From a virus (Duplodnaviria > Heunggongvirae > Uroviricota > Caudoviricetes): a stretch of DNA of 24,993 nt. Location of the stretch: positions 1 through 24,993 of IMG/VR virus record IMGVR_UViG_2778261537_000018. One strand, written 5' to 3'. Of the stretch, positions 1 to 24,296 are shown in pieces (position 1 is the first letter of the stretch; each line of letters opens with the position of its first letter). Under the pieces are notes generated by a model, which saw nothing but the letters and a program-made list of their open reading frames with translations, was not told the DNA's origin and made no database searches. Both the position numbers and the translations under genes were made by a program.

Positions 1-1719
1 ATGATTTTTAGGGATAGCTTGAGAGTATTACCTTATGGTCGAGTAGATAATGATTTCTTCCAGATAGAAGAAAGACGTTCATGGAATGCAGGGCGATATT
101 ATTGGTCTAATAGAAGGATTTTTGGTTATATTGGAATTACTCAATCCAGTAATAAAGAGCTGAAAGATAAGTCGGGGAGAGAGGGATTCATAAGAAACCA
201 GGCTGCAAGAGAACTGAAAACTATTATATCTAATTTGTTAACTGAACTTGCTGATAGATTTTTTGGTTCACGTTCTGATGACCGTAAAGAGCTTTTAGAA
301 CAAGTTAAGCGTGAAAAAGAGTTAAGAAAATCTGCTCAACAACAAGCTCGAAAATCAACACAAAAAAGTTTTTCAGAAGCTTTGAAGAATCAGACACCAG
401 TTCTTGATGCTTCCTTGGAGGCTGTTAAAAGGCTGAAAACTAAGCTTGATAAAACTGATGGTTCGTTAGATTTAAACTATCTTAAAATTATAGACAGTGA
501 TCTTACAAACTTAGATGCGTTGCGCAGTGAAATTAAAACGCCTATCAAACCTCCAAAACTTGGAATGTATGAAGAGAAATATAGAGACTACAGAGATAAA
601 TTTAATGAGTTCTCTGCGTATATTCTACAAATGAAGTTAGCAATTAATAAACTTGATTCTGAATTAAATAAACTTGAGCCTTCATTGTCAGCGAAAAATC
701 ACCTTGAAAAAAATCAAGGTATTATTAATTCTAAACTAACTAAGTTTAATAACACGATAGAGGAGAAGATACATTCTCTTTTAAAAAAATGGGCCGATGA
801 AATAAAGGTTGATCGAAGTGATTATTATGCTAAAACTATATCAGTTGTTGATTCAATAGATAATGATTCACAAATTGAAAATGTGTTTAATTTGCTCGAT
901 AGTTTATATGTTGAGTCAGTTGATACCCTAATTTTCAAATATCAATCAATAATAAAAGGTCTCGATAGATTATTTGAAGGTATAAACTTAGATTCAGCAT
1001 TCTCATTATCTGAAGAAGAACGCTCATATTTTGAAGAAAAAGCTAAAAGTTTAAACGCGCTTGCACAGTTAGGTATTAGTGTTGAGATAATATCTCATGA
1101 ACTTGAAGAAATGGATTCTATGGTAACCAGAGGACTAAACTCTCTTCCTACTTCTGTAAAAGAACACCCTGGTTTTTCATTGGCGTTAAATGCTCACAGA
1201 TCGCTTACTCAACAAATACGTTTCTTATCACCTTTGAAAATATCAGGTTATCAATCCAGGCAGAGAATAACTGGAAAAAATATCATGGATTATGTCCTGA
1301 AGTTCTTTGGGGAGCGTTTCGAACGGCAACGAATAACTATTGAATTTAGTGAAGAGTTTAAGCAAATCGCAATAACAGATATACCATCAAGGATCTATCC
1401 TGTTTTTACTAATATTATCAACAATGCAATGTATTGGGTCAGTCTGTCAAATAATAGGCTCATAAAGATTGGTTTTGTGAATTCTTTGGTTATCATAGCA
1501 AATTCTGGTCCGGCAATTGATACCGATGATATCCCGCGACTATTTGAACTATTTTATAGCAAAAGAGCAAATGGACATGGGGTAGGTCTGTATCTATGTC
1601 GAGAAAACCTTGCTGTTGCACATCATAAAATATGGTATTCAGAACCTGATGAAGGCGATAACTATTTAATAAAAGATGGCGCTAATTTTGTGATCCAGTT
1701 CAATGGAGTGGAGTTCTAA
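1..1719 (+). CDS. Cytoplasmic histidine-kinase-like protein: coiled-coil N-terminal half, HisKA-like H-box, C-terminal HATPase_c (GHKL) domain
   Basis: ATG at 1, stop TAA 1717-1719. H-box-like IISHELEEM about 100 aa upstream of N-box NIINNAMYW; degenerate G1 box NSGPAID, F-box LFELF, G2 box GHGVGL. N-terminal half is K/E/L-rich (coiled-coil-like) with no obvious hydrophobic TM segment. Both window ends coincide with start codons, so the gene is probably complete. Confidence 0.6.
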   Translation: MIFRDSLRVLPYGRVDNDFFQIEERRSWNAGRYYWSNRRIFGYIGITQSSNKELKDKSGREGFIRNQAARELKTIISNLLTELADRFFGSRSDDRKELLEQVKREKELRKSAQQQARKSTQKSFSEALKNQTPVLDASLEAVKRLKTKLDKTDGSLDLNYLKIIDSDLTNLDALRSEIKTPIKPPKLGMYEEKYRDYRDKFNEFSAYILQMKLAINKLDSELNKLEPSLSAKNHLEKNQGIINSKLTKFNNTIEEKIHSLLKKWADEIKVDRSDYYAKTISVVDSIDNDSQIENVFNLLDSLYVESVDTLIFKYQSIIKGLDRLFEGINLDSAFSLSEEERSYFEEKAKSLNALAQLGISVEIISHELEEMDSMVTRGLNSLPTSVKEHPGFSLALNAHRSLTQQIRFLSPLKISGYQSRQRITGKNIMDYVLKFFGERFERQRITIEFSEEFKQIAITDIPSRIYPVFTNIINNAMYWVSLSNNRLIKIGFVNSLVIIANSGPAIDTDDIPRLFELFYSKRANGHGVGLYLCRENLAVAHHKIWYSEPDEGDNYLIKDGANFVIQFNGVEF

Positions 1720-1720
1720 T

Positions 1721-3469
1721 ATGACAGTGGCAAATTATAATTCTCTTGTCCAGAAAACTTTCTGCGAAAATGCAATTCGTTCCGTTGTCATGATTGATGA
1801 CGATTTTCTGACGTATTCTGAATCAATCAGGGCGTTGAATAACGAAGTTGATTTAGACTACAACAAAATTGACTCATCTAAACGAGCCGCTACTCTTGAG
1901 AGCTTTTTTCAATCTAAAAATATGATTTGTGATGTTGACAATGGTTCTGTTAATTTCGATGTGGATCGGATTAGAAAATCAGATCTTATTATTGTAGATT
2001 ATCATCTTGATAATAATGCACCTGATAAAACACTTAAACTATTACAAGATTTGAAAGACTCCGATCATTTAAATATGATTGTAATATATACTAGAGAGAA
2101 TTTAGAAACGGTTTGGATGCAGATATCATCGACTCTCAAAGGTGCTCTGGATATCAACAGCTTGATCATTGACTACGATAATGAAGATGTCCAAAGTTAT
2201 TGGGAAGACGTTGTATTACCGAACTTAAATGATAATGGTAATAAAGCTCTCACAAGAGATGAAACAATAGCCTATATTAAAGACAGTAAGCCTTGTAGAA
2301 GAATTAAAAGATTAATACATGATGATGCTGTGTTGGAGGATCAAAAGGATAAAAACTTCATTGCAAAAATGATTGCAGAATATGCTGTGTCTAGAAATGC
2401 AATTATTTCTAGCAACACATCTGGCTATGTCATTCGGGGTGATGAAAGCGGAGTAAAATGGATTCAATGTGGTAATATCTTTGTCTCCCTATTTCATAAG
2501 GTTCAAGATGATCATGAAAACGATGGAGATAGGATTTGGCAAACTCTCAATGATTCTCTCATTGAATGGAAACCATCTTATTATCAGTTAATAAAATCTG
2601 AAATTCAGAATGCAATCGAAGCTGAGGCTTTATCTTTTGTAAATCATTTGGCTAACGATCATTACGGTCAAGCTGCGTGGTTAAATGAGATATTAAAATC
2701 AGACTCGCCTGATATTAGATGTAGAAATATTGACTTTGTATTTGGTAATTTATCAGAAGAGCTTTATCAAAGACTTAAAAATAATAATACGCTGGATGAA
2801 TTTATCAAAAGTGTTTTTGATAGCTATTCAAATGAATACGCTAACAGCGGAGTTGCTGCATTGCTCCAATATTGCTCTTCAAAAATGGATCTGCCATCAA
2901 ATAATGATACTTATCACGAAATGTATCATGCTTTAAATATGAATTTGTCTTCAAAGAATTTTGAAGATGGTCATATTTCTACTGGCACTATTTTCTTTGA
3001 TACAGAGTCGAACAAATGGTATTTATGTGTGTCTGCGGCATGTGATTTGGTTCCTACTCAGGGTAACGACCCTCACCATGTAAGATTAAGTCCGCACAGG
3101 CTCATTAAAGTTCTGGAGCTTTTTAACGCCAGTCAGAGTAAAGCATTGCCATTTGCTGAACATTCGAAATATATATATGTAATGCATAAAAATCAAAGAA
3201 AATATCTCTCTATTTTCGAAGGGGATAAAACGCTTCCTGTTGTTGATTATATGGTGGTGTTGAATCATGGAACAACAGTTGATGGCGAAGAAAAAAATAT
3301 TATTTCTGCCGTGTTTTTAAGTAATATGGATGGCAACGTGCAAAATGTTCCTGTCCGACTCAAACTTAAATCTCAACTGAGAACTGGTTATGCAGAAAGA
3401 TATCAGGCTATAGCGTCTCAGTATAGCTCAAGGATTGGTGTGGATTATGTATCAATGATGCTACCATAA
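1721..3469 (+). CDS. Receiver (REC) domain protein with large uncharacterised C-terminal domain
   Basis: ATG 1721 preceded by GGAG at 1709-1712, immediately after the upstream stop (operon-like). N-terminal about 120 aa show REC hallmarks: VVMIDDD (acidic pair), DLIIVDYHLD (phospho-acceptor Asp position), MIVIYT (conserved Thr), then Lys. The remaining about 450 aa have no motif I recognise. ORF track start at 1703 overlaps the upstream gene; 1721 preferred. Confidence 0.6.
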   Translation: MTVANYNSLVQKTFCENAIRSVVMIDDDFLTYSESIRALNNEVDLDYNKIDSSKRAATLESFFQSKNMICDVDNGSVNFDVDRIRKSDLIIVDYHLDNNAPDKTLKLLQDLKDSDHLNMIVIYTRENLETVWMQISSTLKGALDINSLIIDYDNEDVQSYWEDVVLPNLNDNGNKALTRDETIAYIKDSKPCRRIKRLIHDDAVLEDQKDKNFIAKMIAEYAVSRNAIISSNTSGYVIRGDESGVKWIQCGNIFVSLFHKVQDDHENDGDRIWQTLNDSLIEWKPSYYQLIKSEIQNAIEAEALSFVNHLANDHYGQAAWLNEILKSDSPDIRCRNIDFVFGNLSEELYQRLKNNNTLDEFIKSVFDSYSNEYANSGVAALLQYCSSKMDLPSNNDTYHEMYHALNMNLSSKNFEDGHISTGTIFFDTESNKWYLCVSAACDLVPTQGNDPHHVRLSPHRLIKVLELFNASQSKALPFAEHSKYIYVMHKNQRKYLSIFEGDKTLPVVDYMVVLNHGTTVDGEEKNIISAVFLSNMDGNVQNVPVRLKLKSQLRTGYAERYQAIASQYSSRIGVDYVSMMLP

Positions 3470-3540: not shown

Positions 3541-3957
3541 TTATTTTTGTTTAAGTCTTCTAAGCTTCATGCATTCTAATGAGAATAATAATAGAGTTGT
3601 GCTGTATATAAAGCCAGAGTTAGTTAATAACTTTAAATTTAATGCTTCAGGATTTTCACTGAGAAAGTGAAAGGCATAAACTAAGTATACAGCTAAAGTA
3701 GCCGTTCCAATTGTTGGTCCAATATCGCCTTGATCATGAGGTTCAAGGTTTACATTGAACTTGAAGATTAGCCATTCAAATCCCCAAGTAAAAAAAACAA
3801 CTAATATCATGGCTGCGAATAATTTCGCGATGTTATCTGCTGATGGATTCATCAGAACAGATTGTTTCTGAAAAAATTCACAAAGTGAGAGTCCGAAAAA
3901 AATAAAAAAAAGTGGTCTGGAACTAAATTTTTCAAAAACTTTGAATAGGGTTTCCAT
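3541..3957 (-). CDS. Small hydrophobic protein (about 4 predicted TM segments), function unknown
   Basis: 138-aa ORF 38 bp downstream of the P4-type int on the same strand; hydrophobic stretches FFIFFGLSL, AAMILVVFFTWGF, ATLAVYLVYAF, FIYSTTLLLF; weak SD (GAAGGT) upstream of ATG at 3957. Confidence 0.4.
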   Translation of the reverse strand: METLFKVFEKFSSRPLFFIFFGLSLCEFFQKQSVLMNPSADNIAKLFAAMILVVFFTWGFEWLIFKFNVNLEPHDQGDIGPTIGTATLAVYLVYAFHFLSENPEALNLKLLTNSGFIYSTTLLLFSLECMKLRRLKQK

Positions 3958-3995: not shown

Positions 3996-5225
3996 TTAGG
4001 CTACCAGAGCATTTGATCTTTGAGCTTGAACGTAATCACTCCACCATTGCATCAAACTCTGTCGCTCTATCAGATATTCTGCACGATTGTATGCTGCGAT
4101 AATTTCATCTTTTTTCGAGTGGGCAAGCGCTGCCTCAAGAACTTCAGCTCTGAATTTACCAGACTCCTCTGCCGCTGTTCGTGCAATAGAACGCATACCG
4201 TGAGCTACAAGCTCGCCTCCGAACCCCATTCGGATGATAGCTGCGTTGGCTGTTTGTTCATGCATATGATTAAGAGGCGCTTTTATGCTGGGGAAAACCC
4301 ATTCTCTATGCCCACTTATTGATTTCATTAATTCAAGGATGCGCAAAGCTTCTTTACTCAAAGGAACTTTGTGAAGCTTTTTCATTTTCATGAAATCAGC
4401 AGGAATGTTCCAAATGCTGTTGGTTGTATCAATATCAGACCACCTTGCGCGAACGGCTTCACCCGGACGAACCCATGTCAACAATTGCCATTCAATTAGC
4501 ATACGTGTTTCCAACCGGATTGACGCATTCGTCAAAGATTCCATAAACCTTGGCAATTCGCTTGGGGGAAGGGCAGGCATATTTTGCTTTTTTGGTTTAC
4601 TGAATCTTTGACCAAGGTTGTCAGCCGGGTTGAACTCAATAAGTTCTTCAGTAGCTGCCCACCGGAAGATTTCATTCAGACGTGAAATGATACGGCGTAG
4701 AGTTTCCAATACGCCTCGTTGCTCAATAGGATCAAGGTGTTGTTTTAAGAGCTTAGGTCGGATCTCATTGATAGGGACATTACCCAGACCGGGAAAGACA
4801 TTTCTCTCTAAGCTGCGCCAGATGTCTGCTGCATGGTCTTGTGAGATACCTGATGTCTTTACCTTCTCATCTAACCATTTCCGCGCTACGGCTTGGAGAG
4901 TGTGCTCAGTAGCACTCTTTAATGCCTTCGCCTTATCGTTGTTATGGATTTGGGGATCAACACCATTTGCCAGAAAGGAGAGATATTCATCACGTAAGGC
5001 TCTGGCTCTTGCAAGGGTAAGGTGAGGATATGTCCCAAGGCTCATTTTGGTTCTTTTCTTGCTCACTGGTACTGCATACCTGAAATACCAATTTTTCTTG
5101 CCTCCTTTCGCCAAAGGAGCGATTCGTAGAATCAGACCATCACCGTCAAACAAGTTGATTTCTTTATCGGCTGGCTTGGTGCTTTTGATTTCAGTGTCAG
5201 TGAGCTTCTTAGCGATTTTTGCCAT
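3996..5225 (-). CDS. int: P4-type (CP4-57 IntA-like) tyrosine integrase
   Basis: N-terminus MAKIAKKLTDTEIKSTKP... with the arm-binding (DUF4102-like) signature of P4-family integrases; C-terminal catalytic region HGMRSIARTAAEE...AHS...YNRAEY. Start taken at the internal ATG (5223-5225) rather than the ORF-track start 5267. Sits next to the ssrA-derived 45-bp repeat, as intA does next to ssrA in E. coli K-12. Confidence 0.85.
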   Translation of the reverse strand: MAKIAKKLTDTEIKSTKPADKEINLFDGDGLILRIAPLAKGGKKNWYFRYAVPVSKKRTKMSLGTYPHLTLARARALRDEYLSFLANGVDPQIHNNDKAKALKSATEHTLQAVARKWLDEKVKTSGISQDHAADIWRSLERNVFPGLGNVPINEIRPKLLKQHLDPIEQRGVLETLRRIISRLNEIFRWAATEELIEFNPADNLGQRFSKPKKQNMPALPPSELPRFMESLTNASIRLETRMLIEWQLLTWVRPGEAVRARWSDIDTTNSIWNIPADFMKMKKLHKVPLSKEALRILELMKSISGHREWVFPSIKAPLNHMHEQTANAAIIRMGFGGELVAHGMRSIARTAAEESGKFRAEVLEAALAHSKKDEIIAAYNRAEYLIERQSLMQWWSDYVQAQRSNALVA

Positions 5226-5390
5226 TTTGGGACCCTCGGTTTTTGGACCCTTCTTAGTGGGTCCCATTCAGGGTGCCATAACTCGTAGTTCTCAGCAATT
5301 CTCACTGGACGACAATAGACGTAAAAAAGCCCGCAGAGCTTGTGCTGTGTGGGCTTAGTAGACTTCATTGAACTTCAAACAACTAAAAAG

Positions 5391-5435
5391 TGGTGGAGCT
5401 GGCGGGAGTTGAACCCGCGTCCGAAATTCCTACAT
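5391..5435. repeat. 45-bp direct repeat identical to the 3' end of ssrA (att site between tandem elements)
   Basis: tggtggagctggcgggagttgaacccgcgtccgaaattcctacat is identical at 5391-5435 and 23934-23978 (the 3' end of the intact tmRNA gene); sequences diverge immediately beyond on both sides. Confidence 0.85.
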
Positions 5436-5527
5436 ACTATTATTAATGGTTGAGATGCAATAATTTATCAATATTATCATTGATTTAGTGTTTTGGCGTA
5501 TTAGCAAGTGTTATGCATTTTTACTCT

Positions 5528-5550
5528 TCTGTCGCCATTTTGCCGCCACT
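5528..5550. repeat. 23-bp direct repeat, left copy (tctgtcgccattttgccgccact)
   Basis: Exact 23-mer also present at 23865-23887, same orientation; each copy lies just inside the 45-bp ssrA repeats. Confidence 0.8.
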
Positions 5551-5643
5551 TATACTAATGCAATAGAATATCTACCTACGATAATTTATACTGGAAGTGA
5601 TGAAAAAATAAAAAAATATCAATACTTTTCGATGTGGGGATAT

Positions 5644-7386
5644 ATGAAAACACAGAAATTCGTAAGTGAACTTTTTTTAGAAAATGGGCAGTTTATTCTA
5701 GTTGGCTTAACTGGAAGAACTGGTTCTGGTTGTACTACAGCAGCAACTATTTTAGAAAGTAATGAGACAGTATTTCCCGATGTGGATAAATTAACTGATT
5801 TTTATAATGGTTTAGATTTACAGCGTTATAAGATAGTTAAGGATTTCACTGAGAATCATTGGGAGGCATTTTACTCAATCAAGGTTAGTGACTTGCTATC
5901 AGTTTATTTGTTAGCAATGTCACATACTGAACTTTCACACTTCATCACGTCGTCAACTAAAGATAGCATTGATGAAGATAAATTAAACAAGATACTTAAT
6001 GAAGGAGCATTTTCAAAAACACAACTTAGAAAAATAAGGACGGATATATTAAAAGCACTTATTGATCATAGTCAAGAATTAGATCTCGATAATCTAGATG
6101 TATCTAACATAAGAAAAACATTGCATTTGGTTAGGTTTTTCACTAATAACTTCAAAAAAGAACTTAATGAGATAAATACAGGTCTTTATGTATCAACTTA
6201 TCAGGCCGCTGGAAAATCTGTTAGACGGCTTGGTGAAGTAAAAACAAACTATGAAACAGAAGAATTTGATCCAAAATCGGTATTTCATTTGCCTGAAACT
6301 ATTAATAGGGTCATTAAGCTAATTAGAAAAAGCCAAGGTGGTAAGGCATTAGTAGTTATTGATGCTATACGTAATCCATATGAAGCTAAATTCTTTAAAG
6401 ATAGATATGCTGCATTCCATTTGGTATCAATTAATGCTCCTGATGAGCATAGGAAAAAATATTTACAGAAGCTACACAAGTTTTCATCTGAGCGCATTAA
6501 ACACATTGATGATATTGAATCAGGAAAAGGAGATAAAGACAATCAATATAAACATTTAACGAACCCTAATGTAACGAAATGCATAGAAATTTCGGATATA
6601 CATCTTTATAATCCTAAAAATGAGTTTGATAACAATAACATACTTAAAGCACAACTTGCATGGTATATCGCTCTAATGAAGCATCCTGGATTGATCACTC
6701 CTACAGCGATGGAGCGAGTTATGCAGGTCGCATATACTGTTAAATTAAACTCTGGATGTATATCGAGGCAGGTCGGTGCCGTTGTTACAGATAATGATAA
6801 TTCAATTAAATCAGTTGGTTGGAATGATGTAGCTAAAGGGCAGATACCATGTTCAATGAGATCACTCGATGGGTTGATCAATGATTTTGATTCGAAAGTA
6901 TATAGCTCATATGAGCGAAATGATGCTCTTTTTAGAAAGAAAGCTAAAAGTAATTTAATAAAGTTTAGAGCGATTGAATCAAGCTCTGAAATTTTTAAAG
7001 GACGTAATTTGTCATATTGCTTCAAGGATATTCATAATAGTCTTAATGATGATAAAAAAGGGAATCAGGTCCATACCAGAGCTTTACATGCTGAAGAAAA
7101 TGCCTTTTTACAATTATCTAAATATGGTGGCGTTGGTGTCCAAGGTGGTAAGTTGTATACTACAGCAAGTCCTTGTGAACTTTGTGCAAAAAAAGCATAT
7201 CAATTAGAGGTCGCTGAAATAATTTTCATTGATCCTTATCCGGGTATTGCACAAGATCATATTATTAATATAGGTAATAATCCACCTAAATTAATTCAAT
7301 TTAGAGGGGCAATTGGTAAATCATATCATCGATTATATGAACAAATTATTCCTATGAAAGATGAGTTGGATTATTTATCAATGTAA
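5644..7386 (+). CDS. P-loop kinase-like domain fused to cytidine/deoxycytidylate deaminase domain (AvcD/DcdV-like anti-phage dCTP deaminase architecture)
   Basis: N-terminal Walker-A-like GLTGRTGSGCTT; C-terminal zinc-deaminase signature HAEENAF...SPCELCAKK (H-x-E and PC-x-x-C). Start placed at ATG 5644 (GGGGA 3-7 nt upstream); in-frame alternatives at 5632 and 5488. AT-rich relative to phage backbone. Stop 7384-7386 is 9 bp from the convergent int stop. Confidence 0.65.
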   Translation: MKTQKFVSELFLENGQFILVGLTGRTGSGCTTAATILESNETVFPDVDKLTDFYNGLDLQRYKIVKDFTENHWEAFYSIKVSDLLSVYLLAMSHTELSHFITSSTKDSIDEDKLNKILNEGAFSKTQLRKIRTDILKALIDHSQELDLDNLDVSNIRKTLHLVRFFTNNFKKELNEINTGLYVSTYQAAGKSVRRLGEVKTNYETEEFDPKSVFHLPETINRVIKLIRKSQGGKALVVIDAIRNPYEAKFFKDRYAAFHLVSINAPDEHRKKYLQKLHKFSSERIKHIDDIESGKGDKDNQYKHLTNPNVTKCIEISDIHLYNPKNEFDNNNILKAQLAWYIALMKHPGLITPTAMERVMQVAYTVKLNSGCISRQVGAVVTDNDNSIKSVGWNDVAKGQIPCSMRSLDGLINDFDSKVYSSYERNDALFRKKAKSNLIKFRAIESSSEIFKGRNLSYCFKDIHNSLNDDKKGNQVHTRALHAEENAFLQLSKYGGVGVQGGKLYTTASPCELCAKKAYQLEVAEIIFIDPYPGIAQDHIINIGNNPPKLIQFRGAIGKSYHRLYEQIIPMKDELDYLSM

Positions 7387-7395
7387 GTCTGTACA

Positions 7396-8409
7396 TTATA
7401 AAAAGTTGAGTGGGTTTTTATAAACTGCGTCTTCAAGATGATCTGGTGAAAAGTGTGAATATACCATGGTCATCTTGATATCAGAATGACCCAAAATATC
7501 TCTCAAAACAAGTATGTTTCCGCCGTTCATCATAAAATGACTGGCGAAAGTATGGCGTAGCACATGAGTGCATTGTCCCGCTGGTAAGTCTATATTGGCC
7601 CGCTTCACTGCTCGTTCAAAAGCTTTTCTGCATGGCGTGAACAGCTTCCCCCTGTTTTTGGGTAGTTCGTCGTATAGCTCCTGAGATATCGGTACAGTTC
7701 GGTTTTTCTTGCCTTTGGTTTTGGTATAGGTGATCCGATATTTTGATAACTGATGGCCTTGAAGGTTTTCGGCTTCACTCCACCGCGCGCCGGTAGCTAG
7801 GCATACCTTTGCGATCATCAATAGGCTAGGGCTTTGAGAATCAGCGCAGGCATCAAGCAGGCGTTTAATTTCGTCCAAGGCTAAGAATGCCAATTCACCC
7901 TCTGCGATTTTGAATGTCGGTAGCCCGGCGAGTGGGTTAGGCGCTGACCAGTGGCCCAACTTCTTCAGGGTGCCAAAAACGGATGATAAGTTACGCTGTT
8001 CAAGGTTTACCGTGCGTGGTTTTACTGGCGACATTAGCGCGCCTTCTTCGTTACGTACCTCTCCTTTCAACCGTGCTTCACGATATTTCGTAAAGTCACC
8101 GGCGGTTAATTCAGAGGCGACGGGATCGCCTAGGCCATTGCAGATAATATTCAGTTTCGCCATCAGGCGCTTGGGGTCTGCGAGCGTCTGGCCGTAAAGG
8201 GAGTGCCACTGCTCAATCAATTCTGACAAACGCCGCCGATCTTCCTTTTCACCCAGCCACGGCTTTTTGTTCACTTGATCCATGGTGAAGTTTTCGAATG
8301 CTACAGCCTCGCCCTTTGTCGCAAATTGCTTGCGCACGCGCTTGCCGTCACGCCCGTTCGGGTAACACTCGCACAACCATTTTCCGTTCGGCTGTTTTCT
8401 GATGGTCAT
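7396..8409 (-). CDS. int: P2/186-type phage tyrosine integrase
   Basis: 337 aa; N-terminal ...NGKRVRKQFATKGEAVAFE and C-terminal HVLRHTFASHFMMNGGNILVLRDILGHSDIKMTMVYSHF (catalytic His/Arg/Tyr region). Start ATG 1 nt after the cI stop on the same strand (translational coupling). Confidence 0.85.
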   Translation of the reverse strand: MTIRKQPNGKWLCECYPNGRDGKRVRKQFATKGEAVAFENFTMDQVNKKPWLGEKEDRRRLSELIEQWHSLYGQTLADPKRLMAKLNIICNGLGDPVASELTAGDFTKYREARLKGEVRNEEGALMSPVKPRTVNLEQRNLSSVFGTLKKLGHWSAPNPLAGLPTFKIAEGELAFLALDEIKRLLDACADSQSPSLLMIAKVCLATGARWSEAENLQGHQLSKYRITYTKTKGKKNRTVPISQELYDELPKNRGKLFTPCRKAFERAVKRANIDLPAGQCTHVLRHTFASHFMMNGGNILVLRDILGHSDIKMTMVYSHFSPDHLEDAVYKNPLNFL

Positions 8410-15095: not shown

Positions 15096-15363
15096 GAAAC
15101 GTTGCTGGCGTCTGAACTTGTTTCTGGCGTCAGCAAGGTTGAACAACGAGCCCTTGCGAGGCGTTAGCTCTGTAGTGCATGTCTATGCCGCATGAGATCG
15201 CATGATCGTTTGAGGATCGTTTTTGCTAAGGCCCGCCAGAACTGGTGGGCTTTTGCGTAGATCATGCAGGTGCATGAAAACCACTACATAAAGCGGGCAG
15301 GCGTGGCGGGGATACGAGCGCGCGCTAACTCATAAATCCTAGATTATTAGTGGATTTATCTCA

Positions 15364-17187
15364 TTGAAATGTGCACTATTCCCAGCATTGAGTTGTACCA
15401 GATGTCTTTATGGAGGGACTGTGGCTTTTGTAACTGATATTCGGCTTGAAGATAATGCTATTGCTGCACCTGCGACAGCACAGGTTATGGCTCAGAGGCT
15501 AGGATCTGTATTACGTAAGAGATATGAAGAATTCATCCATAAAAGAGAGTGTGCACCAGGCCAAGCAGACTATGATGTAAAAATGGCTAGCAGGGCTTTA
15601 GCCGCATTCACTATGTATCAGTTAGGATGTGTGGATGATAAGTATGCAGGGGAGTCTGTATGTGATAGTAGTGAAGATGGTGGTATAGATGGAATAGCAA
15701 TCAACCATAACGAAAAAATCGTTGTTGTTGTTCAATCAAAATTTCACCAATCGGGAAACGGCACTTGGACAAGAGCCGATTTTATGTGTTTTAAGGATGC
15801 TTGTGAGAAGCTACAAAGTGAAAGATACGAATTATTTGATTCCATATTGCAAAATAAAAGCGGGGAAATAAGTGCGGCTTTAAGTAGTTTTGAATACAAG
15901 TTCATCTTTGCGATGGCGCATACAGGTAAAAAAGGTGCTGCAGAGGAAATATTAAATGATATGCGGGAATGGCAATATCAATTAAACGCTGCAGCTTTTA
16001 CACCTGAGGATGAGCCTAAAGAGAACTGGGGATTTCAGGTTCATTTAATATCCTCTGAAGATATGATGCATTGGTTACAGAATGGCTCTCGAAATCAAAT
16101 TGATCTTAACAGGGTTGAAATTGAGCGTTTTGGATTTTTGAATGAACCATATCAAGCTTTTTACGGGGCTATTAGTGGTGATCAAGTTGCAGAATGGTGG
16201 GAAGAGCATGGTGCTCGATTATTTACAAAAAACATAAGGAATATGCTTGGTAAAACAGAAGTGAATGAGGAAATAAAAAAGACAGCTATAGATAATCCTG
16301 ATATGTTTTGGTTTTATAATAATGGGATTACTGTACTGGTTAAGGAAGTTGTTCCTCATAGACGAAACGCAGCTCCTAATATAGAGAGAGGGATTTTTGA
16401 TTTTCGTGATGTAAGTGTCATTAATGGTGCACAAACAGTCAGTAGTATTGGCGCATGTAAAGATGCGCTTGGTGAAAACATATATAGACTCAAAGTGCCA
16501 GCTAGATTCATTGTTATAGATGATGATACTGATAATTTAACTGCAAATGCAATTACAAAAGCTAACAATTTCCAAAATAGAGTATTGGGAAGAGATTTTG
16601 CATCGCAGCAGGCAGATCAACATAGATTGGCAAGGGAGTTAGTGCTTGAAGGATATCAATATCAGTTACTAAGAACAGATGAAGATCATTCACAGACAAA
16701 TACGAAAGTCATTGACTTGGATGAGGCGCTCAATGCACTCGCATGTTTAAGTAAAAATAATACGGTTGTATCGACACTAAAATCAAATCGCGGTAGGTTT
16801 TTTGAAAATTTTGAAGGCTCTCTATATAAAACTATTTTCAATCCAAGATTAAGTGGTTTAAAACTTATCAATACTGTTCTACATTTTAGAGTTATAGATA
16901 AGTTGATCGGTAAAACATTACTATCAGTAGATAAAACGACCCATAGTCGCAAGCATTTAATTATTACGCATGGTAATAGATACTATGCGTCTGTACTATT
17001 GAGCAACGTTTCTGGGATACATAATAGCTCAGAAATTCTTGTTCCAGATGAAAAAAATCTTTCCGAAGAATTAAGTGCATTAATTCAACGTGCTGAAGAG
17101 TACATTGAAGATAATTACCCGAATGCCTATCCGGCAAGATTTTTTGCAAATCCAACGAAAATACAAGAGTTATACGATAATGTTTAA
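15364..17187 (+). CDS. AIPR-like putative abortive-infection protein with N-terminal PD-(D/E)xK-like motif
   Basis: Long AT-rich ORF between repA and the portal gene (the P2 old/tin cargo position). N-terminal DGGIDGIAI...VVVVQSKF resembles a PD-(D/E)xK (Mrr-like) core; FWFYNNGITVLV and VINGAQT resemble AIPR-family motifs as I recall them. True start uncertain (in-frame TTG 15364, GTG 15421, ATG 15487). Confidence 0.5.
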   Translation: MKCALFPALSCTRCLYGGTVAFVTDIRLEDNAIAAPATAQVMAQRLGSVLRKRYEEFIHKRECAPGQADYDVKMASRALAAFTMYQLGCVDDKYAGESVCDSSEDGGIDGIAINHNEKIVVVVQSKFHQSGNGTWTRADFMCFKDACEKLQSERYELFDSILQNKSGEISAALSSFEYKFIFAMAHTGKKGAAEEILNDMREWQYQLNAAAFTPEDEPKENWGFQVHLISSEDMMHWLQNGSRNQIDLNRVEIERFGFLNEPYQAFYGAISGDQVAEWWEEHGARLFTKNIRNMLGKTEVNEEIKKTAIDNPDMFWFYNNGITVLVKEVVPHRRNAAPNIERGIFDFRDVSVINGAQTVSSIGACKDALGENIYRLKVPARFIVIDDDTDNLTANAITKANNFQNRVLGRDFASQQADQHRLARELVLEGYQYQLLRTDEDHSQTNTKVIDLDEALNALACLSKNNTVVSTLKSNRGRFFENFEGSLYKTIFNPRLSGLKLINTVLHFRVIDKLIGKTLLSVDKTTHSRKHLIITHGNRYYASVLLSNVSGIHNSSEILVPDEKNLSEELSALIQRAEEYIEDNYPNAYPARFFANPTKIQELYDNV

Positions 17188-17190
17188 ACT

Positions 17191-17217
17191 AAAGGGAGGT
17201 TGCCTCCCTTTTTTTTA
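17191..17217. terminator. Rho-independent terminator between the AIPR-like gene and the portal gene (bidirectional candidate)
   Basis: aaAGGGAGGttgCCTCCCTttttttttt: 7-bp GC-rich stem (17193-17199 / 17203-17209), 3-nt loop, T-run 17209-17216; lies between convergent stops at 17187 and 17219. Confidence 0.6.
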
Positions 17218-17218
17218 A

Positions 17219-18244
17219 TTAGAAATGGTATTCTTGGAATTCAATAACACCTTCTTTTATGAAATTGTTTATTTCTTGTAATCTTTTTTGCAATGGCAAT
17301 AATTCATTACGTACAAATACTTTACTCGCCTTCTCTACATCTCCAAAGCCCCCGACATTATTAGGCATTATCCCCATCATTTGTGGCGGCACACGATGCG
17401 CCGCCATCATGTCGTCCCGGCTCACGTTCTTGATATTCAGGAACTCATCCTTCGCCGCCACTTCTGACAACGGGATAATCTGAAGCCCGTCCTTTTTACC
17501 GTTAGGCGAGTACATAAACAGGTTACGGAAGTTACCAGGACCTTTGGCGCTTTTCATCGCATTGCGGAGGTTGTTCACATCCTCCTGGTTCTGCGCTGCA
17601 TCGGTCATGTACATGATGAAGCCTGCATGACTGCCGTTAATGTAATACTTGCGGCGGAACAGCGTGGCGGACTCGTTGAGCAAAGCGGATGGGATGGCAG
17701 AAAGATAGCCGGGCAGGCCGTAGATCTCCTGATTAATATCCGGTTCCATCAGATGAAAAATGCTGCCTTTCGTGAACTGATACGGCTGGGTTGTCATACC
17801 GTATTGCACAAACCAGTAGGTATCCAGGTCTAACCCGCGTCGGGTGTATTTTGCCAGAGCAGGCTCAAGGGCGATAACTTCACCGAAGCGGTTCGTGCGT
17901 TTCTCCAGGTAGGCGTTACCAAATACCAGATAGTCCTGCACAAAACGTGAAAAATCCTGCTGGCTGAGCAGCGGGTGAGGGATGTAGGTACTGGTCAGAA
18001 TGTTGCATTTCACTGCAATCGGTGAACTGTGATGCACGGCGGCGCGGAAGGTGCGCGCCAGCCCGTCAAAGCTTACTGGCGGCTCATACCAGCGATCTGT
18101 CTGTACGCATTCCACATAGTCCAGCAGTTCGCGGCGGTCCAGAACAGGAACGGGATCACCGAAGCTGAATGCTTCGGCTGAAGTCTGGCTTTTATGCTGG
18201 ATCTGGTTCGTCGACGCAGCGCGGTTCTTCTTACTCTTTCCCAT
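17219..18244 (-). CDS. Phage portal protein (P2 gpQ family)
   Basis: About 341 aa, same size as P2 Q; directly downstream of and overlapping the terminase large subunit gene by 1 nt on the same strand; position matches the P2 Q-P arrangement. Confidence 0.8.
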   Translation of the reverse strand: MGKSKKNRAASTNQIQHKSQTSAEAFSFGDPVPVLDRRELLDYVECVQTDRWYEPPVSFDGLARTFRAAVHHSSPIAVKCNILTSTYIPHPLLSQQDFSRFVQDYLVFGNAYLEKRTNRFGEVIALEPALAKYTRRGLDLDTYWFVQYGMTTQPYQFTKGSIFHLMEPDINQEIYGLPGYLSAIPSALLNESATLFRRKYYINGSHAGFIMYMTDAAQNQEDVNNLRNAMKSAKGPGNFRNLFMYSPNGKKDGLQIIPLSEVAAKDEFLNIKNVSRDDMMAAHRVPPQMMGIMPNNVGGFGDVEKASKVFVRNELLPLQKRLQEINNFIKEGVIEFQEYHF

Positions 18245-22064: not shown

Positions 22065-22715
22065 ATGAGCCTGAGTCCCGCACGGCAGCATCGCCTGCGC
22101 GTTCAGGCTGAACAGGCCGCCCGCGAGGGCGGCAGTGTTCGCCACGCATCGGGCTATGACCTGATGCTGCTGCAACTGGCGGAAGACCGCCGCCGTCTCA
22201 AGGGCGTTCAGTCCACGGTCAAAAAAGCGGAAATCAAGGTGGAGCTGCTGCCGAAGTACGCCGCCTGGGCAGAGGGGGTCCTGGCTGCCGGAGGCGCTCA
22301 ACAGGATGACGTGCTGATGTACGTGATGCTGTGGCGCATTGATGCCGGAGATTATGCCGGGGCGCTGGAGATCGGGCGTCATGCCCTGCGTCATGGCTGG
22401 GTGATGCCGCTGGGTAACCGCAACGTGCAGACCGTGCTGGCAGAGGAAATGGCAGACGCCGCGCAGAGCGCAATGCTTGCCGCCACCGGCTTTGATGCCG
22501 ATCTGTTGTTGCAGACGCTGGAGCTGACAGACGGTCTGGATATGCCGGACCAGTCACGGGCGCGTCTGCATAAAGCGATTGGCGCTGTCCTGAGTGAAAG
22601 CAATCCGGCTTCCGCCCTTAATCATCTCAACCATGCGTTACAGCTCGATCCCCGCTGTGGCGTGAAAAAAGACAAACAGCAGCTGGAGCGCAGACTGCGC
22701 AATGACAGCCGCTGA
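22065..22715 (+). CDS. Terminase small/endonuclease subunit (P2 gpM family)
   Basis: 216-aa ORF immediately after the capsid gene; assignment by synteny (O-N-M-L) and size, with weak sequence recollection. Confidence 0.65.
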   Translation: MSLSPARQHRLRVQAEQAAREGGSVRHASGYDLMLLQLAEDRRRLKGVQSTVKKAEIKVELLPKYAAWAEGVLAAGGAQQDDVLMYVMLWRIDAGDYAGALEIGRHALRHGWVMPLGNRNVQTVLAEEMADAAQSAMLAATGFDADLLLQTLELTDGLDMPDQSRARLHKAIGAVLSESNPASALNHLNHALQLDPRCGVKKDKQQLERRLRNDSR

Positions 22716-22810
22716 CAGAACGTGCCCCCGCGCACGGGCGGCACGGGGTGGCGAAAGGCACTGCCACATCAAAACCCCGTCCACCGCCCTCTATTTCAGG
22801 AGAAAGCAGC

Positions 22811-23014
22811 ATGAAGTTTGTTGCGCCAGAACAGGCACCGGAACAGGCGGAAATCATCAGAAATACGCCGTTCTGGCCTGATGTGGACCTGTCGGAGTTT
22901 CGCAGTGTCATGCGCACTGACGGCACGGTGACGCAGCCGCGTTTAAAGCAGGTTGACGGTTTTACAACCAGTATTGAACTCGAAGTGAAGATTGATGATC
23001 TTGAAATGGAGTAA
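22811..23014 (+). pseudogene. Truncated head completion/stabilisation gene (P2 gpL N-terminal fragment)
   Basis: ATG 22811 with AGGAGA SD; MKFVAPEQ...FWPDVDLSEFRSVMRTDGTVTQPRL matches the gpL N-terminus; ORF ends after 67 aa whereas gpL is about 169 aa; the next gene is ogr, so the intervening morphogenetic genes are deleted. Confidence 0.5.
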
Positions 23015-23082
23015 AGTGTTCTCAATATTGATATTTTGTGTATCATTACAATGATTCTGATAGCAAAGGTAGGGATCTGGAT

Positions 23083-23301
23083 ATGATGAATTGTCCAAAG
23101 TGTGGTCATGCGGCACACACAAGGAGCAGTTTTCAAGTAACTGAAAGCACCAAAGAGCGTTACTGCCAGTGCCAAAATATTAACTGCGGGAGTACTTTTG
23201 TTACCCATGAAACAGTGGTCCGGTTTATTGTGACACCCGCACTGATTGCTACTGCTCCTCCACATCCATTGCCAGGTGGTCAGGGGCATATGAATTTTTG
23301 A
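23083..23301 (+). CDS. Ogr/Delta/B-family zinc-finger late-gene transcriptional activator
   Basis: 72 aa from ATG 23083: MMNCPKCGHAAHTRSS...TKERYCQCQNINCGSTFVTHETVVRFIV...PHPLPGGQ, near-colinear with P2 Ogr (CPLCQHAAHARTS...KERYHQCQNVNCSATF...PHPLPSGQ). Confidence 0.8.
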   Translation: MMNCPKCGHAAHTRSSFQVTESTKERYCQCQNINCGSTFVTHETVVRFIVTPALIATAPPHPLPGGQGHMNF

Positions 23302-23327: not shown

Positions 23328-23810
23328 TTATTCATCTGGGATCTCACCCGTTTCAAGAAAATGTATAAAGCCAGGCTCATCTATGATGATTGTGCCTTTC
23401 ATCCTGGCTGCCGATACTTTTGATGGGCCTGCATTGTAACCGCAACAGAGCATCTGAAGGCTTTGGGTTACAGAGGTTCTTACCGTTAATCCTTGTTCAT
23501 TCGCCTTATCAACCAATCTTTCTTTATCTGCTTTCTTAAATCCGGTGAAACACACATCGAATGTATTTTTTTTCGGACCAGACTGCTTGGTGAGATGTGA
23601 GTAGTTTTCGGGGAGGAATGACGCGCACTCCTGAATGGCTTGTTCTGGTGAATCGTACTGTTTAAGAATGCGGTCTTTTCGGAAGGTTTTTATTCGATCG
23701 GTGTTCTTACAAATGCCCTGTATATGATTTTCGCTATAACTGATGCTCTGTATAGAGTGAACACCGATACGACCATTTGCATTGATGTAAACAAAGTGAA
23801 GTTCTTCCAT
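23328..23810 (-). CDS. Small WYL-like / BRCT-domain protein, function unknown
   Basis: 160-aa AT-rich ORF between ogr and ssrA. C-terminal 75 aa fit a BRCT fold pattern (CFTGF...RLV...GLTVRTSVTQSLQMLCCGYNAGPSKVSAARMKGTIIIDEPGF, compare LigA BRCT VLTGSL...[41 protein letters not shown]). N-terminal part has an R-x-F-R-x-D-R-I-like motif (KTFRKDRI) reminiscent of WYL domains. Confidence 0.4.
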   Translation of the reverse strand: MEELHFVYINANGRIGVHSIQSISYSENHIQGICKNTDRIKTFRKDRILKQYDSPEQAIQECASFLPENYSHLTKQSGPKKNTFDVCFTGFKKADKERLVDKANEQGLTVRTSVTQSLQMLCCGYNAGPSKVSAARMKGTIIIDEPGFIHFLETGEIPDE

Positions 23811-23864
23811 GTGAAACCTCTTTGCATGATTTCAAGATGGCGACAGGCAAGATAGACGCAAAAG

Positions 23865-23887
23865 TCTGTCGCCATTTTGCCGCCACT
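23865..23887. repeat. 23-bp direct repeat, right copy, forming the 3' arm of a 10-bp inverted repeat
   Basis: tctgtcgccattttgccgccact identical to 5528-5550; atggcgacag (23837-23846) is the exact reverse complement of ctgtcgccat (23866-23875), giving a hairpin with a 19-nt loop. Confidence 0.8.
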
Positions 23888-23933
23888 ACTAAAGAAAAAG
23901 GGGCTACGCTTTCACGTAACCCCTTGATTTATT

Positions 23934-24296
23934 TGGTGGAGCTGGCGGGAGTTGAACCCGCGTCCGAAATTCCTACATCCTCGGTACTACATGCTTAGTC
24001 AGTCTTTACATTCGCTTGCCAGCTGCGGACGGACACGCCACTAACAAACTAGCCTGATTAAGTTTTAACGCTTCAACCCCAGGCAGGGCTTCCACGCGAT
24101 CTCTTTTGGGTTTGACCTCTCTTGATCCCCGTCCTAAGAGCGGAGGCTAGGGAGAGAGGGCTCTAAGCAGGTTATTAAGCTGCTAAAGCGTAGTTTTCGT
24201 CGTTTGCGACTATTTTTTGCGGCTTTTTACGAGGCCAACCGCCCCTCGGCATGCACCTTGGGTTTCGCAAATCCCGTCGAATCCAGAATCAGCCCC
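23934..24296 (-). ncRNA. ssrA: tmRNA (SsrA), intact 363-nt gene
   Basis: Reverse complement reads GGGGCTGATTCTGGATTCGACGGGATTTGCG...TAAAAACTTAATCAGGCTAGTTTGTTAGTGG...GGGTTCAACTCCCGCCAGCTCCACCA, matching E. coli tmRNA as I recall it; lies immediately downstream of smpB on the same strand. Confidence 0.95.

Follow-up and report, generated by a model that had tools for sequence, protein, structure and literature searches.

What is the AT-rich gene that lies between the attachment (att) site and the integrase gene of a P2-like prophage, and what might it do there? The question arises in a stretch of 24,993 nucleotides (nt) from a virus of the class Caudoviricetes (IMG/VR record IMGVR_UViG_2778261537_000018, positions 1 to 24,993), called the window in the following, where the gene occupies positions 5644-7386 of the + strand and encodes 580 amino acids (aa) plus stop in an uninterrupted reading frame. 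We consider it very probable that the product is a single-protein anti-phage deoxycytidine triphosphate (dCTP) deaminase of the Tal et al./AvcD family, carried as lysogenic-conversion cargo between att and int of a P2-like prophage that is integrated at ssrA. Family membership, fold, conservation of all known essential residues and the location as prophage cargo were established in this analysis. The deamination of dCTP and of the monophosphate dCMP, the depletion of the deoxycytidine (dC) pool, the trigger by transcription shut-off and the need for both domains come from the literature on homologues.

To which family does the protein belong? With 415.5 bits, where the cut-off is 400, the protein passes the NCBIfam equivalog NF041025 'anti-phage dCTP deaminase' over all positions of the model (1-437/437), and the PADLOC dCTPase model matches at 6.3e-140; PADLOC/DefenseFinder list the system as 'dCTPdeaminase'. 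Since the homology E-values range from 1e-124 to 1e-140, chance similarity is ruled out. Over 579 aligned residues, the window protein has 70% identity and 83% positives to the enzyme of Tal et al. from E. coli AW1.7 (WP_045268677.1, 576 aa). In infected cells that enzyme depletes dCTP, and it protects against several phages (Tal et al., bioRxiv 10.1101/2021.04.26.441389; later Nat Microbiol 2022); expressed alone in E. coli, it defends (10.1101/2021.04.26.441389). RefSeq protein WP_096960926.1 of E. coli LF4-1 is set apart from the window protein by a single residue change, N468D, and is named 'anti-phage dCTP deaminase'. Many of the 4341 homologues found at E <= 1e-10 by a word-indexed protein search bear the same NCBI name, and an exhaustive search of representatives gave 441 clusters (50% identity) at E <= 1e-30. 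In complete E. coli genomes a homologue detectable by blastn is present in 44 of 5426, and the window allele in four of these 5426 (99.8-99.9% identical, all annotated 'anti-phage dCTP deaminase'). The product exceeds 350 aa in one polypeptide, whose N-terminal domain is kinase-like and whose C-terminal domain is a zinc-dependent cytidine/dCMP deaminase. By homology, the window protein belongs to the published anti-phage dCTP deaminase family. Thus the deaminase as such is already known and annotated: RefSeq names the protein, and the family, the chemistry (dCTP/dCMP to dUTP/dUMP), the trigger and the importance of the P-loop Cys are published, which leaves it little weight as a discovery.

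Could the protein be a housekeeping dCMP deaminase or ComEB-like enzyme instead, or an inactive remnant? Pfam sees only the generic dCMP_cyt_deam_1 domain (aa 356-528, 1.7e-14), and some sources name homologues 'ComE operon protein 2' or 'deoxycytidylate deaminase'. However, the ComEB model TIGR02571 reaches just 34.4 bits against a cut-off of 219.45 and matches aa 478-532 alone (55 residues), which refutes the housekeeping assignment. Enzymes of the housekeeping type have about 150-190 aa, while the window protein has 580 aa with a second domain, and it carries GWND in place of G[YW]NG. A gene with homologues in so few E. coli genomes is also not what a housekeeping role would lead one to expect. 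As for a remnant, the reading frame is intact and every invariant residue is retained. We regard this alternative as hardly credible. A sequence-only reading of the locus had proposed an AvcD/DcdV-like fusion and had named a housekeeping dCMP deaminase or a loss of catalytic residues as the findings that would speak against it; the former fails on the TIGR02571 score and the latter on the presence of HAE and PCELC in the protein. Its suggested alignment with the Tal et al. enzyme bears out both the homology and the state of the Walker A motif.

The conserved residues deserve a closer look, for they connect the window protein with the experiments on its homologues. The N-terminal P-loop domain, of nucleoside monophosphate (NMP) kinase/dephospho-CoA kinase type, spans 5659-6648 (+; about aa 6-335, helical insertion included). 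Its Walker-A-like loop, GLTGRTGSGCTT, lies at 5704-5739 (+; aa 21-32) and has Cys30 at the canonical Lys position; the part reading GRTGSGCTT is aa 24-32 (nt 5713-5739). Residues 21-30 of GLTGRTGSGCTT are invariant in two alignments, A1 and A4, down to 58% identity, and T31 and T32 are invariant in A1 and nearly so in A4. To look further out, we took 150 divergent family representatives (50%-identity clusters, 37-58% identical), 137 of which align across the motif; GxTGxTGxGC[ST][ST], with Cys at the Lys position, is found in nearly all of these 137. Judged from these alignments, the Walker-A Cys is a family-wide hallmark and not peculiar to the window gene. The sequence-only reading had pointed out the Cys in place of Lys; it is there, it corresponds to C30 of the AW1.7 enzyme, and nearly the whole family shares it. 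The window loop may resemble the P-loop of dephospho-CoA kinase (G-L-T-G-G-I-G-S-G-K-S-T) with Cys in place of Lys; one homologue has the JGI label 'deoxycytidylate deaminase/dephospho-CoA kinase'.

The C-terminal zinc-dependent deaminase domain of CMP/dCMP type spans 6691-7308 (+; about aa 350-555) and holds an insertion of about 75 aa at about aa 404-476. Its catalytic zinc site (7087-7185, +) is formed by H482-A-E484 (7087-7095) and P510-C511-E-L-C514 (7171-7185), the HAE and PCxxC that the sequence-only reading had named; both motifs are retained in nearly all of the 150 representatives. Upstream of it lies a pair of invariant cysteines, Cys372 (6757-6759) and Cys403 (6850-6852), which together span 6757-6852 (+) with the divergent allosteric-site motif GWND (6817-6828, +; aa 392-395) between them. 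The columns of C372, C403 and GWND are invariant in A1 and A4, and the two cysteines align with C19 and C49 of T4 dCMP deaminase, which is consistent with a second, structural metal site. Are these residues needed? [quoted passage not shown] AW1.7 residues G29, C30, C370 and C401 align with G29, C30, C372 and C403 of the window protein. The P-loop is needed for defence, because the G29A and C30A substitutions in AW1.7 abolished it.

An AlphaFold2 model of the window protein, built on a 40-sequence alignment, has a mean predicted local distance difference test score (pLDDT) of 78 and a predicted TM-score (pTM) of 0.80, with low confidence at the N-terminus, at aa 462-480 and in the C-terminal loops 533-535 and 564-566. 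The predicted fold has an NMP/dephospho-CoA-kinase-like N-domain joined to a dCMP-deaminase C-domain. No solved full-length two-domain homologue was found in a PDB search, which returned single-domain dCMP deaminases only, and a literature search for an AvcID structure paper found none.

Both by sequence and by fold the deaminase domain is nearest to phage and viral dCMP deaminases, namely those of T4 (1vq2), cyanophage S-TIM5 and PBCV-1 (bi-DCD), and the gene does sit on a phage genome. Might the enzyme then work in nucleotide metabolism for the benefit of the phage, as T4 cd and PBCV-1 bi-DCD do, and turn dC nucleotides into dU/dT precursors for P2-like replication? Several observations make this very improbable. 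Enzymes of the T4/PBCV-1 type are single-domain proteins of 130-190 aa with G[YW]NG, whereas the window protein has the defence-type kinase-like domain and GWND. It reaches the cut-off of the defence family, and its 70%-identical homologue defends alone in E. coli. The gene is dispensable cargo, since sister prophages whose integrases are 92-96% identical carry something else in the same slot. Finally, its GC content of 32.5% is unlike the phage backbone at about 49%, and a phage genome with so little AT-richness has little need to convert dC to dT.

Where does the gene begin? The longest mechanical open reading frame (ORF) in the deaminase frame starts at GTG 5488, a 52-codon in-frame upstream extension, and some gene callers use that start (P0001, P0002). 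This start was rejected: homologues all begin at an aligned MxxxKF, the frame contains stops in the sister allele, and the NCBI annotation pipeline (PGAP) uses 5644. Its start for the near-identical genes of E. coli LF4-1 and TW10598 is the same ATG as 5644. Immediately 5' of this ATG, a Shine-Dalgarno-like GTGGGGA can be read from the sequence at 5634-5640 (+); all six leaders that were aligned have its GTG (5634-5636), and all but the one of Serratia have GTGGG. Thus ATG 5644 is the real start, given the Shine-Dalgarno-like element, MxxxKF in the homologues, the PGAP start and the closed upstream frame of the sister allele. At the other end, the deaminase stop ends at 7386 and the stop of int occupies 7396-7398 on the - strand, which leaves a convergent spacer of 9 nt (7387-7395, GTCTGTACA). 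A scan found no terminator-like hairpin near 7387-7395 on either strand; with a gap of 9 bp and no hairpin, the deaminase and int transcripts should each end inside the other gene or run antisense through it. The composition changes sharply across this gap, from 32.5% GC (22% at third codon positions, GC3) in the deaminase gene to 48.6% (GC3 52%) in int.

Is the gene part of the prophage or of its surroundings? The neighbouring int gene (7396-8409, -) encodes a P2-type tyrosine integrase with Pfam domains Int_N and Phage_integrase, convergent with the deaminase gene. After int follow a P2-type CI repressor gene, a cox/Rha-like gene, CII, gpA, Q, P, O, N and M. On the left, positions 5391-5438 (-) hold a displaced copy of the 3' end of ssrA, the gene for transfer-messenger RNA (tmRNA); this direct repeat of 48 nt, identical at 47/48 positions to 23934-23981 and with a weak tmRNA match in Rfam, is the att core at the left prophage junction. 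The intact ssrA gene lies at 23934-24296 (-). The right att junction (23838-23981, -) comprises the ssrA 3' end (23934-23981), the ssrA terminator hairpin and three TGYCGCCA repeats (23838-23845, inverted; 23867-23874; 23878-23885). Two more such 8-mers, TGTCGCCA and TGCCGCCA, stand as direct repeats on the left arm at 5530-5548 (+), 11 bp from start to start, within a 23-nt exact repeat that is common to both arms (5528-5550 = 23865-23887). In the window TGYCGCCA occurs 10 times against 1.65 expected, five copies being within about 100 nt of the att cores, and a sister prophage likewise carries it on both arms. The repeats are probably arm-type integrase-binding sites of the phage att arms. 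E. coli LF4-1 has a complete P2-like prophage, about 34 kb long, in the homologous region, with the order ssrA, BRCT-domain gene, ogr, D, tail/lysis/head genes, Q, P, A-Q slot, A, cox-like gene, CI, int, deaminase gene and att copy. The deaminase gene lies inside the prophage, in a slot between int and the att site. The sequence-only reading had put an AT-rich gene between an att repeat and a P2-type integrase, convergent with int and 9 bp from its stop, and each of these details is borne out by the coordinates and the composition above.

Is this slot used by other genes? The window and E. coli MS1665 are 97.8% identical from 3900 to exactly 5550 and again 81% identical from 7406, and between these points MS1665 has an unrelated 363-aa gene on the opposite strand. 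Because the identity breaks at 5550 and resumes at 7406, the deaminase cassette can be delimited as 5551 to about 7405; its own part of the upstream DNA is only 93 nt long. The MS1665 gene (locus L078, 5192-6283, -) has no Pfam or PADLOC match, and its 3' end overlaps the start of int on the same strand by 4 nt (6280-6283). In all, integrases 92-96% identical in amino acid sequence to the window Int adjoin three different cargoes: the window deaminase allele, a second deaminase allele with 74% protein identity (WP_000660070.1 of E. coli, with relatives in Siccibacter and Citrobacter), and the unrelated gene of MS1665. The att-int slot of ssrA-integrating P2-like prophages is a variable cargo site. 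A window-type integrase stood beside the deaminase gene in none of 70 species-representative loci of other taxa, therefore the P2 context is specific to this enterobacterial sub-clade. The slot itself is an only mildly new point, supported by a handful of loci. The mobile context fits the reading as an anti-phage cargo gene: the composition is foreign, the gene lies inside the prophage boundaries, and the contents of the slot vary in sister prophages.

There is a further question of how such an enzyme would be kept in check. In V. cholerae the inhibitory RNA AvcI/DifV, 152-174 nt long, is encoded immediately 5' of the deaminase gene on the same strand and is co-transcribed with it (Hsueh et al., bioRxiv 10.1101/2021.03.31.437871; PMC10511110). 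Its decay after phage-induced shut-off of transcription activates the enzyme. Three other species have cognate RNAs that do not resemble AvcI in sequence and are mostly specific for their own enzyme. The window locus might thus encode a full type III toxin-antitoxin pair of the AvcID type in which the deaminase is the toxin; an AvcI-like RNA made from the spacer would bind and inhibit it, and the decay of this RNA after transcription shut-off would set the activity free. This would refine the explanation preferred here and not contradict it. A non-coding same-strand spacer of 205 nt does precede the gene, between the att core and the ATG, and a promoter-like site at 5450-5477 would yield a leader of about 160 nt. 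Inhibitory 5' RNAs of 152-174 nt are known from V. cholerae, V. parahaemolyticus, P. mirabilis and enterotoxigenic E. coli (ETEC) H10407, mutually without sequence similarity. In the AW1.7 clade, moreover, at least 220 nt upstream travel with the deaminase gene across genera at 72-99% identity.

Against an RNA of this kind, 112 nt of the spacer (5439-5550) are shared, at 97.8% identity, with the prophage that carries an unrelated and oppositely oriented gene, and they hold repeats of both att arms. Since this DNA occurs with other cargo and has its repeats on both arms, it is phage att arm and not specific to the deaminase. For the same reasons the conserved block 5482-5552 was largely rejected as an AvcI candidate. 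Cassette-specific leader DNA amounts to only 93 nt, the fold of the leader (5480-5650) is no better than that of shuffled sequences (z = 0.14), and the sister allele does not share the ORF that runs in frame upstream of the gene. Rfam, run on the whole window at the gathering threshold and on 5380-5800 at E <= 1, matched tmRNA and its fragment only, with no small RNA family and no family in the leader. In a blastn search of 74 loci the leader matched only the two sister E. coli alleles and not the AW1.7 leader, and an nhmmer profile of the AW1.7-type leader had no match in the window. These searches gave no positive evidence for an AvcI-like RNA at the window locus; as the published AvcI RNAs are unalike in sequence, its absence does not follow. 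On balance we think that a full AvcID pair at this locus is rather unlikely, though a good deal less so than the metabolic or housekeeping roles. The label AvcD/DcdV-like of the sequence-only reading therefore stands for the protein, by NF041025, the PADLOC dCTPase model and the 70% identity to AW1.7, while the AvcI-type RNA that the label implies was not demonstrated.

What could drive the gene? A candidate deaminase promoter lies at 5540-5569 (+), with -35 TTGCCG, an 18-nt spacer and -10 TAGAAT, and would give a leader of about 65-70 nt. Its -35 overlaps the second arm repeat, TGCCGCCA, and the -10 TAGAA(T/C) and its spacing to TGCCGCCA are kept in five of five aligned prophage-borne alleles from E. 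coli, Siccibacter and Citrobacter. With 93 nt of cassette DNA and a leader of about 65-70 nt from this conserved promoter-like site, there is little room for a V. cholerae-type RNA of 150-170 nt. The short cassette-specific leader makes the window clade convenient for finding out if Tal-type dCTP deaminases depend on an AvcI-like RNA in the first place. As the -35 overlaps the arm-type repeats and the 3' end of the gene is 9 bp from int, expression of the deaminase might also be coupled to Int or to C-int transcription. One may go further and suppose that the att-int junction is an additional, so far undescribed cargo hotspot, in which the deaminase is controlled without an AvcI-type RNA and its expression is tied to the lysogenic or excision state through Int occupancy or C-int read-through; taken as a whole, we find this scenario improbable. 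A better place than the window locus to seek an AvcI-like RNA is the AW1.7-type clade (L075 5673-5992; L003-L006), where 220-320 nt upstream travel with the gene, at least 96.5% identical among E. coli, Buttiauxella, Pseudocitrobacter and Erwinia, and 72-75% in Yersinia.

Coming back to the anti-phage dCTP deaminase that we favour, how might it work in its host? By analogy with the studied homologues, the lysogen would make the deaminase but keep it inactive. Shut-off of host transcription by an infecting lytic phage would then switch the enzyme on, and its zinc centre (H482/E484/C511/C514) would deaminate dCTP, and probably dCMP, to dUTP/dUMP. The dC pool would be emptied, and replication of the phage DNA would stall. 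The kinase-fold domain at the N-terminus, whose P-loop lacks Lys (C30), is expected to be required for this activity, and most likely it binds a nucleotide or a regulatory ligand and does not transfer phosphate. Since P2-like phages depend on host RNA polymerase, the resident prophage would probably leave its own enzyme untriggered.

Some points weigh against this explanation and should be noticed. The function of the window allele is assigned by homology, and the allele is 30% different from the tested enzyme. NF041025 is passed by a narrow margin (415.5 against 400), a result of the model's length of 437 positions and of the insertions, about 120 aa, in the window protein. The promoter is a match to a consensus, and such sites are in total no more numerous in the region than shuffled sequence would lead one to expect. 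No antitoxin RNA was identified at the window locus, which leaves the regulatory half of the AvcID model without support there. Furthermore, the carrier prophage is defective, because about 16 kb are missing relative to LF4-1, from the head-completion gene as far as gene D's 3' end (deletion junction 22955/22956), and expression of the deaminase in it is predicted at most. What remains of the prophage is int, CI, the replication genes, the capsid genes Q to M, the 5' part of the head-completion gene, ogr and all cargo genes. An ORF at 22627-23289 (-) crosses the deletion junction and is probably spurious. The locus is thus a clean natural example of a nucleotide-depletion defence gene in a temperate phage, kept after the loss of tail and lysis genes.

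The deaminase is not the only cargo of this element. Its A-Q slot (about 15167-17285) carries another defence-type gene, AbiU/AIPR-like: an AT-rich ORF at 15364-17187 (+) for a 607-aa AIPR-domain protein (PF10592, 7e-35; PADLOC AbiU, 7e-25). In LF4-1 and TW10598 the same slot, the tin/old hotspot, holds genes other than the AIPR gene. Between ogr and ssrA, the product of an ORF at 23328-23810 (-), 160 aa long, matches BRCT weakly (Pfam 1e-3; PADLOC PDC-S48 2e-7). This position is a second att-proximal cargo slot; the sister prophage of E. coli 2020N21-246 has a gene for a retron-type reverse transcriptase there (L077 11076-11849). Sister loci have PD-T4-2 and a retron-type reverse transcriptase beside the homologous prophage. 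To the left of the att copy, beyond the prophage, is an older island with a P4-type integrase gene (3996-5267, -), an ORF at 3541-3957 (-) and an AT-rich two-gene pair at 1-3469 (+). The first gene of the pair (ORF 1-1719, 572 aa listed from window position 1) has HATPase_c and HEF_HK (PF19191) domains, and its homologue in MS1665 continues upstream of the fetched region; the second encodes 588 aa with Response_reg_2 (PF19192). PADLOC has no match for either gene, and the same pair is present in E. coli MS1665. At the equivalent position another strain has a P4-like satellite (psu, ogr/delta) that carries PD-T4-2. The pair is a candidate for an uncatalogued defence pair in a satellite-type hotspot. 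The locus illustrates how defence islands grow at ssrA from stacked P2-like and P4-type elements.

How does the locus compare with known systems? The biosynthetic dCMP deaminases, T4 Cd (1vq2), the S. mutans enzyme (2hvv), human DCTD (2w4l) and PBCV-1 bi-DCD (7fh4), are single-domain proteins of 130-190 aa under allosteric control through G[YW]NG, without the kinase-like domain and without the insertion of about 75 aa. V. cholerae DcdV/AvcD of VSP-1 (VC0175) consists of a P-loop kinase-like domain joined to a dCMP-deaminase domain (Hsueh et al., 10.1101/2021.03.31.437871; PMC10511110). Its Walker-A variant S52K is inactive and fails to induce filamentation (Hsueh et al., 10.1101/2021.03.31.437871); from the name of the variant the native residue is read as Ser, a non-Lys residue. 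Its allosteric motif is GCND, where allosterically regulated dCMP deaminases have G[YW]NG (Hsueh et al.). By published description it thus shares with the window protein the two domains, a Walker A without Lys and a divergent motif (GCND there, GWND here), and activation upon transcription shut-off would be expected for the window enzyme as well. V. cholerae AvcD is seemingly shorter, with its catalytic Glu at E384 against E484, and its inhibitor RNA (152-174 nt, just 5') is experimentally defined, whereas the window gene has only 93 nt of cassette-specific leader. For ETEC H10407, whose AvcD is WP_096882215.1, blastn against the E. coli genome collection gave no match.

As to the carrier, Rousset et al. 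2022 (PMC9122126) described defence cargo at the A-Q hotspot of P2-like phages and at the psu-int hotspot of P4-like satellites; a term search of that paper found no mention of deaminases or of an att-int slot in E. coli P2-like phages. The window prophage resembles theirs in having its cargo in fixed variable slots, also in the neighbouring island with a P4-type integrase, but its deaminase gene lies in the att-int slot (5551 to about 7405) and not between A and Q, the tin/old hotspot. The closest validated relative is the AW1.7 enzyme. The window protein represents another allele and clade, 30% divergent, with two 2-residue insertions (about aa 298-299 and 468-470) and two 1-residue differences in the variable insert of the N-domain. 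The AW1.7 gene lies in an integrase island linked to tRNA-Phe, whereas the window gene lies in a P2-like prophage. Between the conserved upstream region of the AW1.7 gene (at least 220 nt) and the window's 205-nt leader no similarity is detectable. Still, the two enzymes have in common the two-domain layout, the P-loop GLTGRTGSGCTT with G29/C30 in the same numbering, the Cys pair, HAE and PCELC, and both are single-gene systems on a mobile element.

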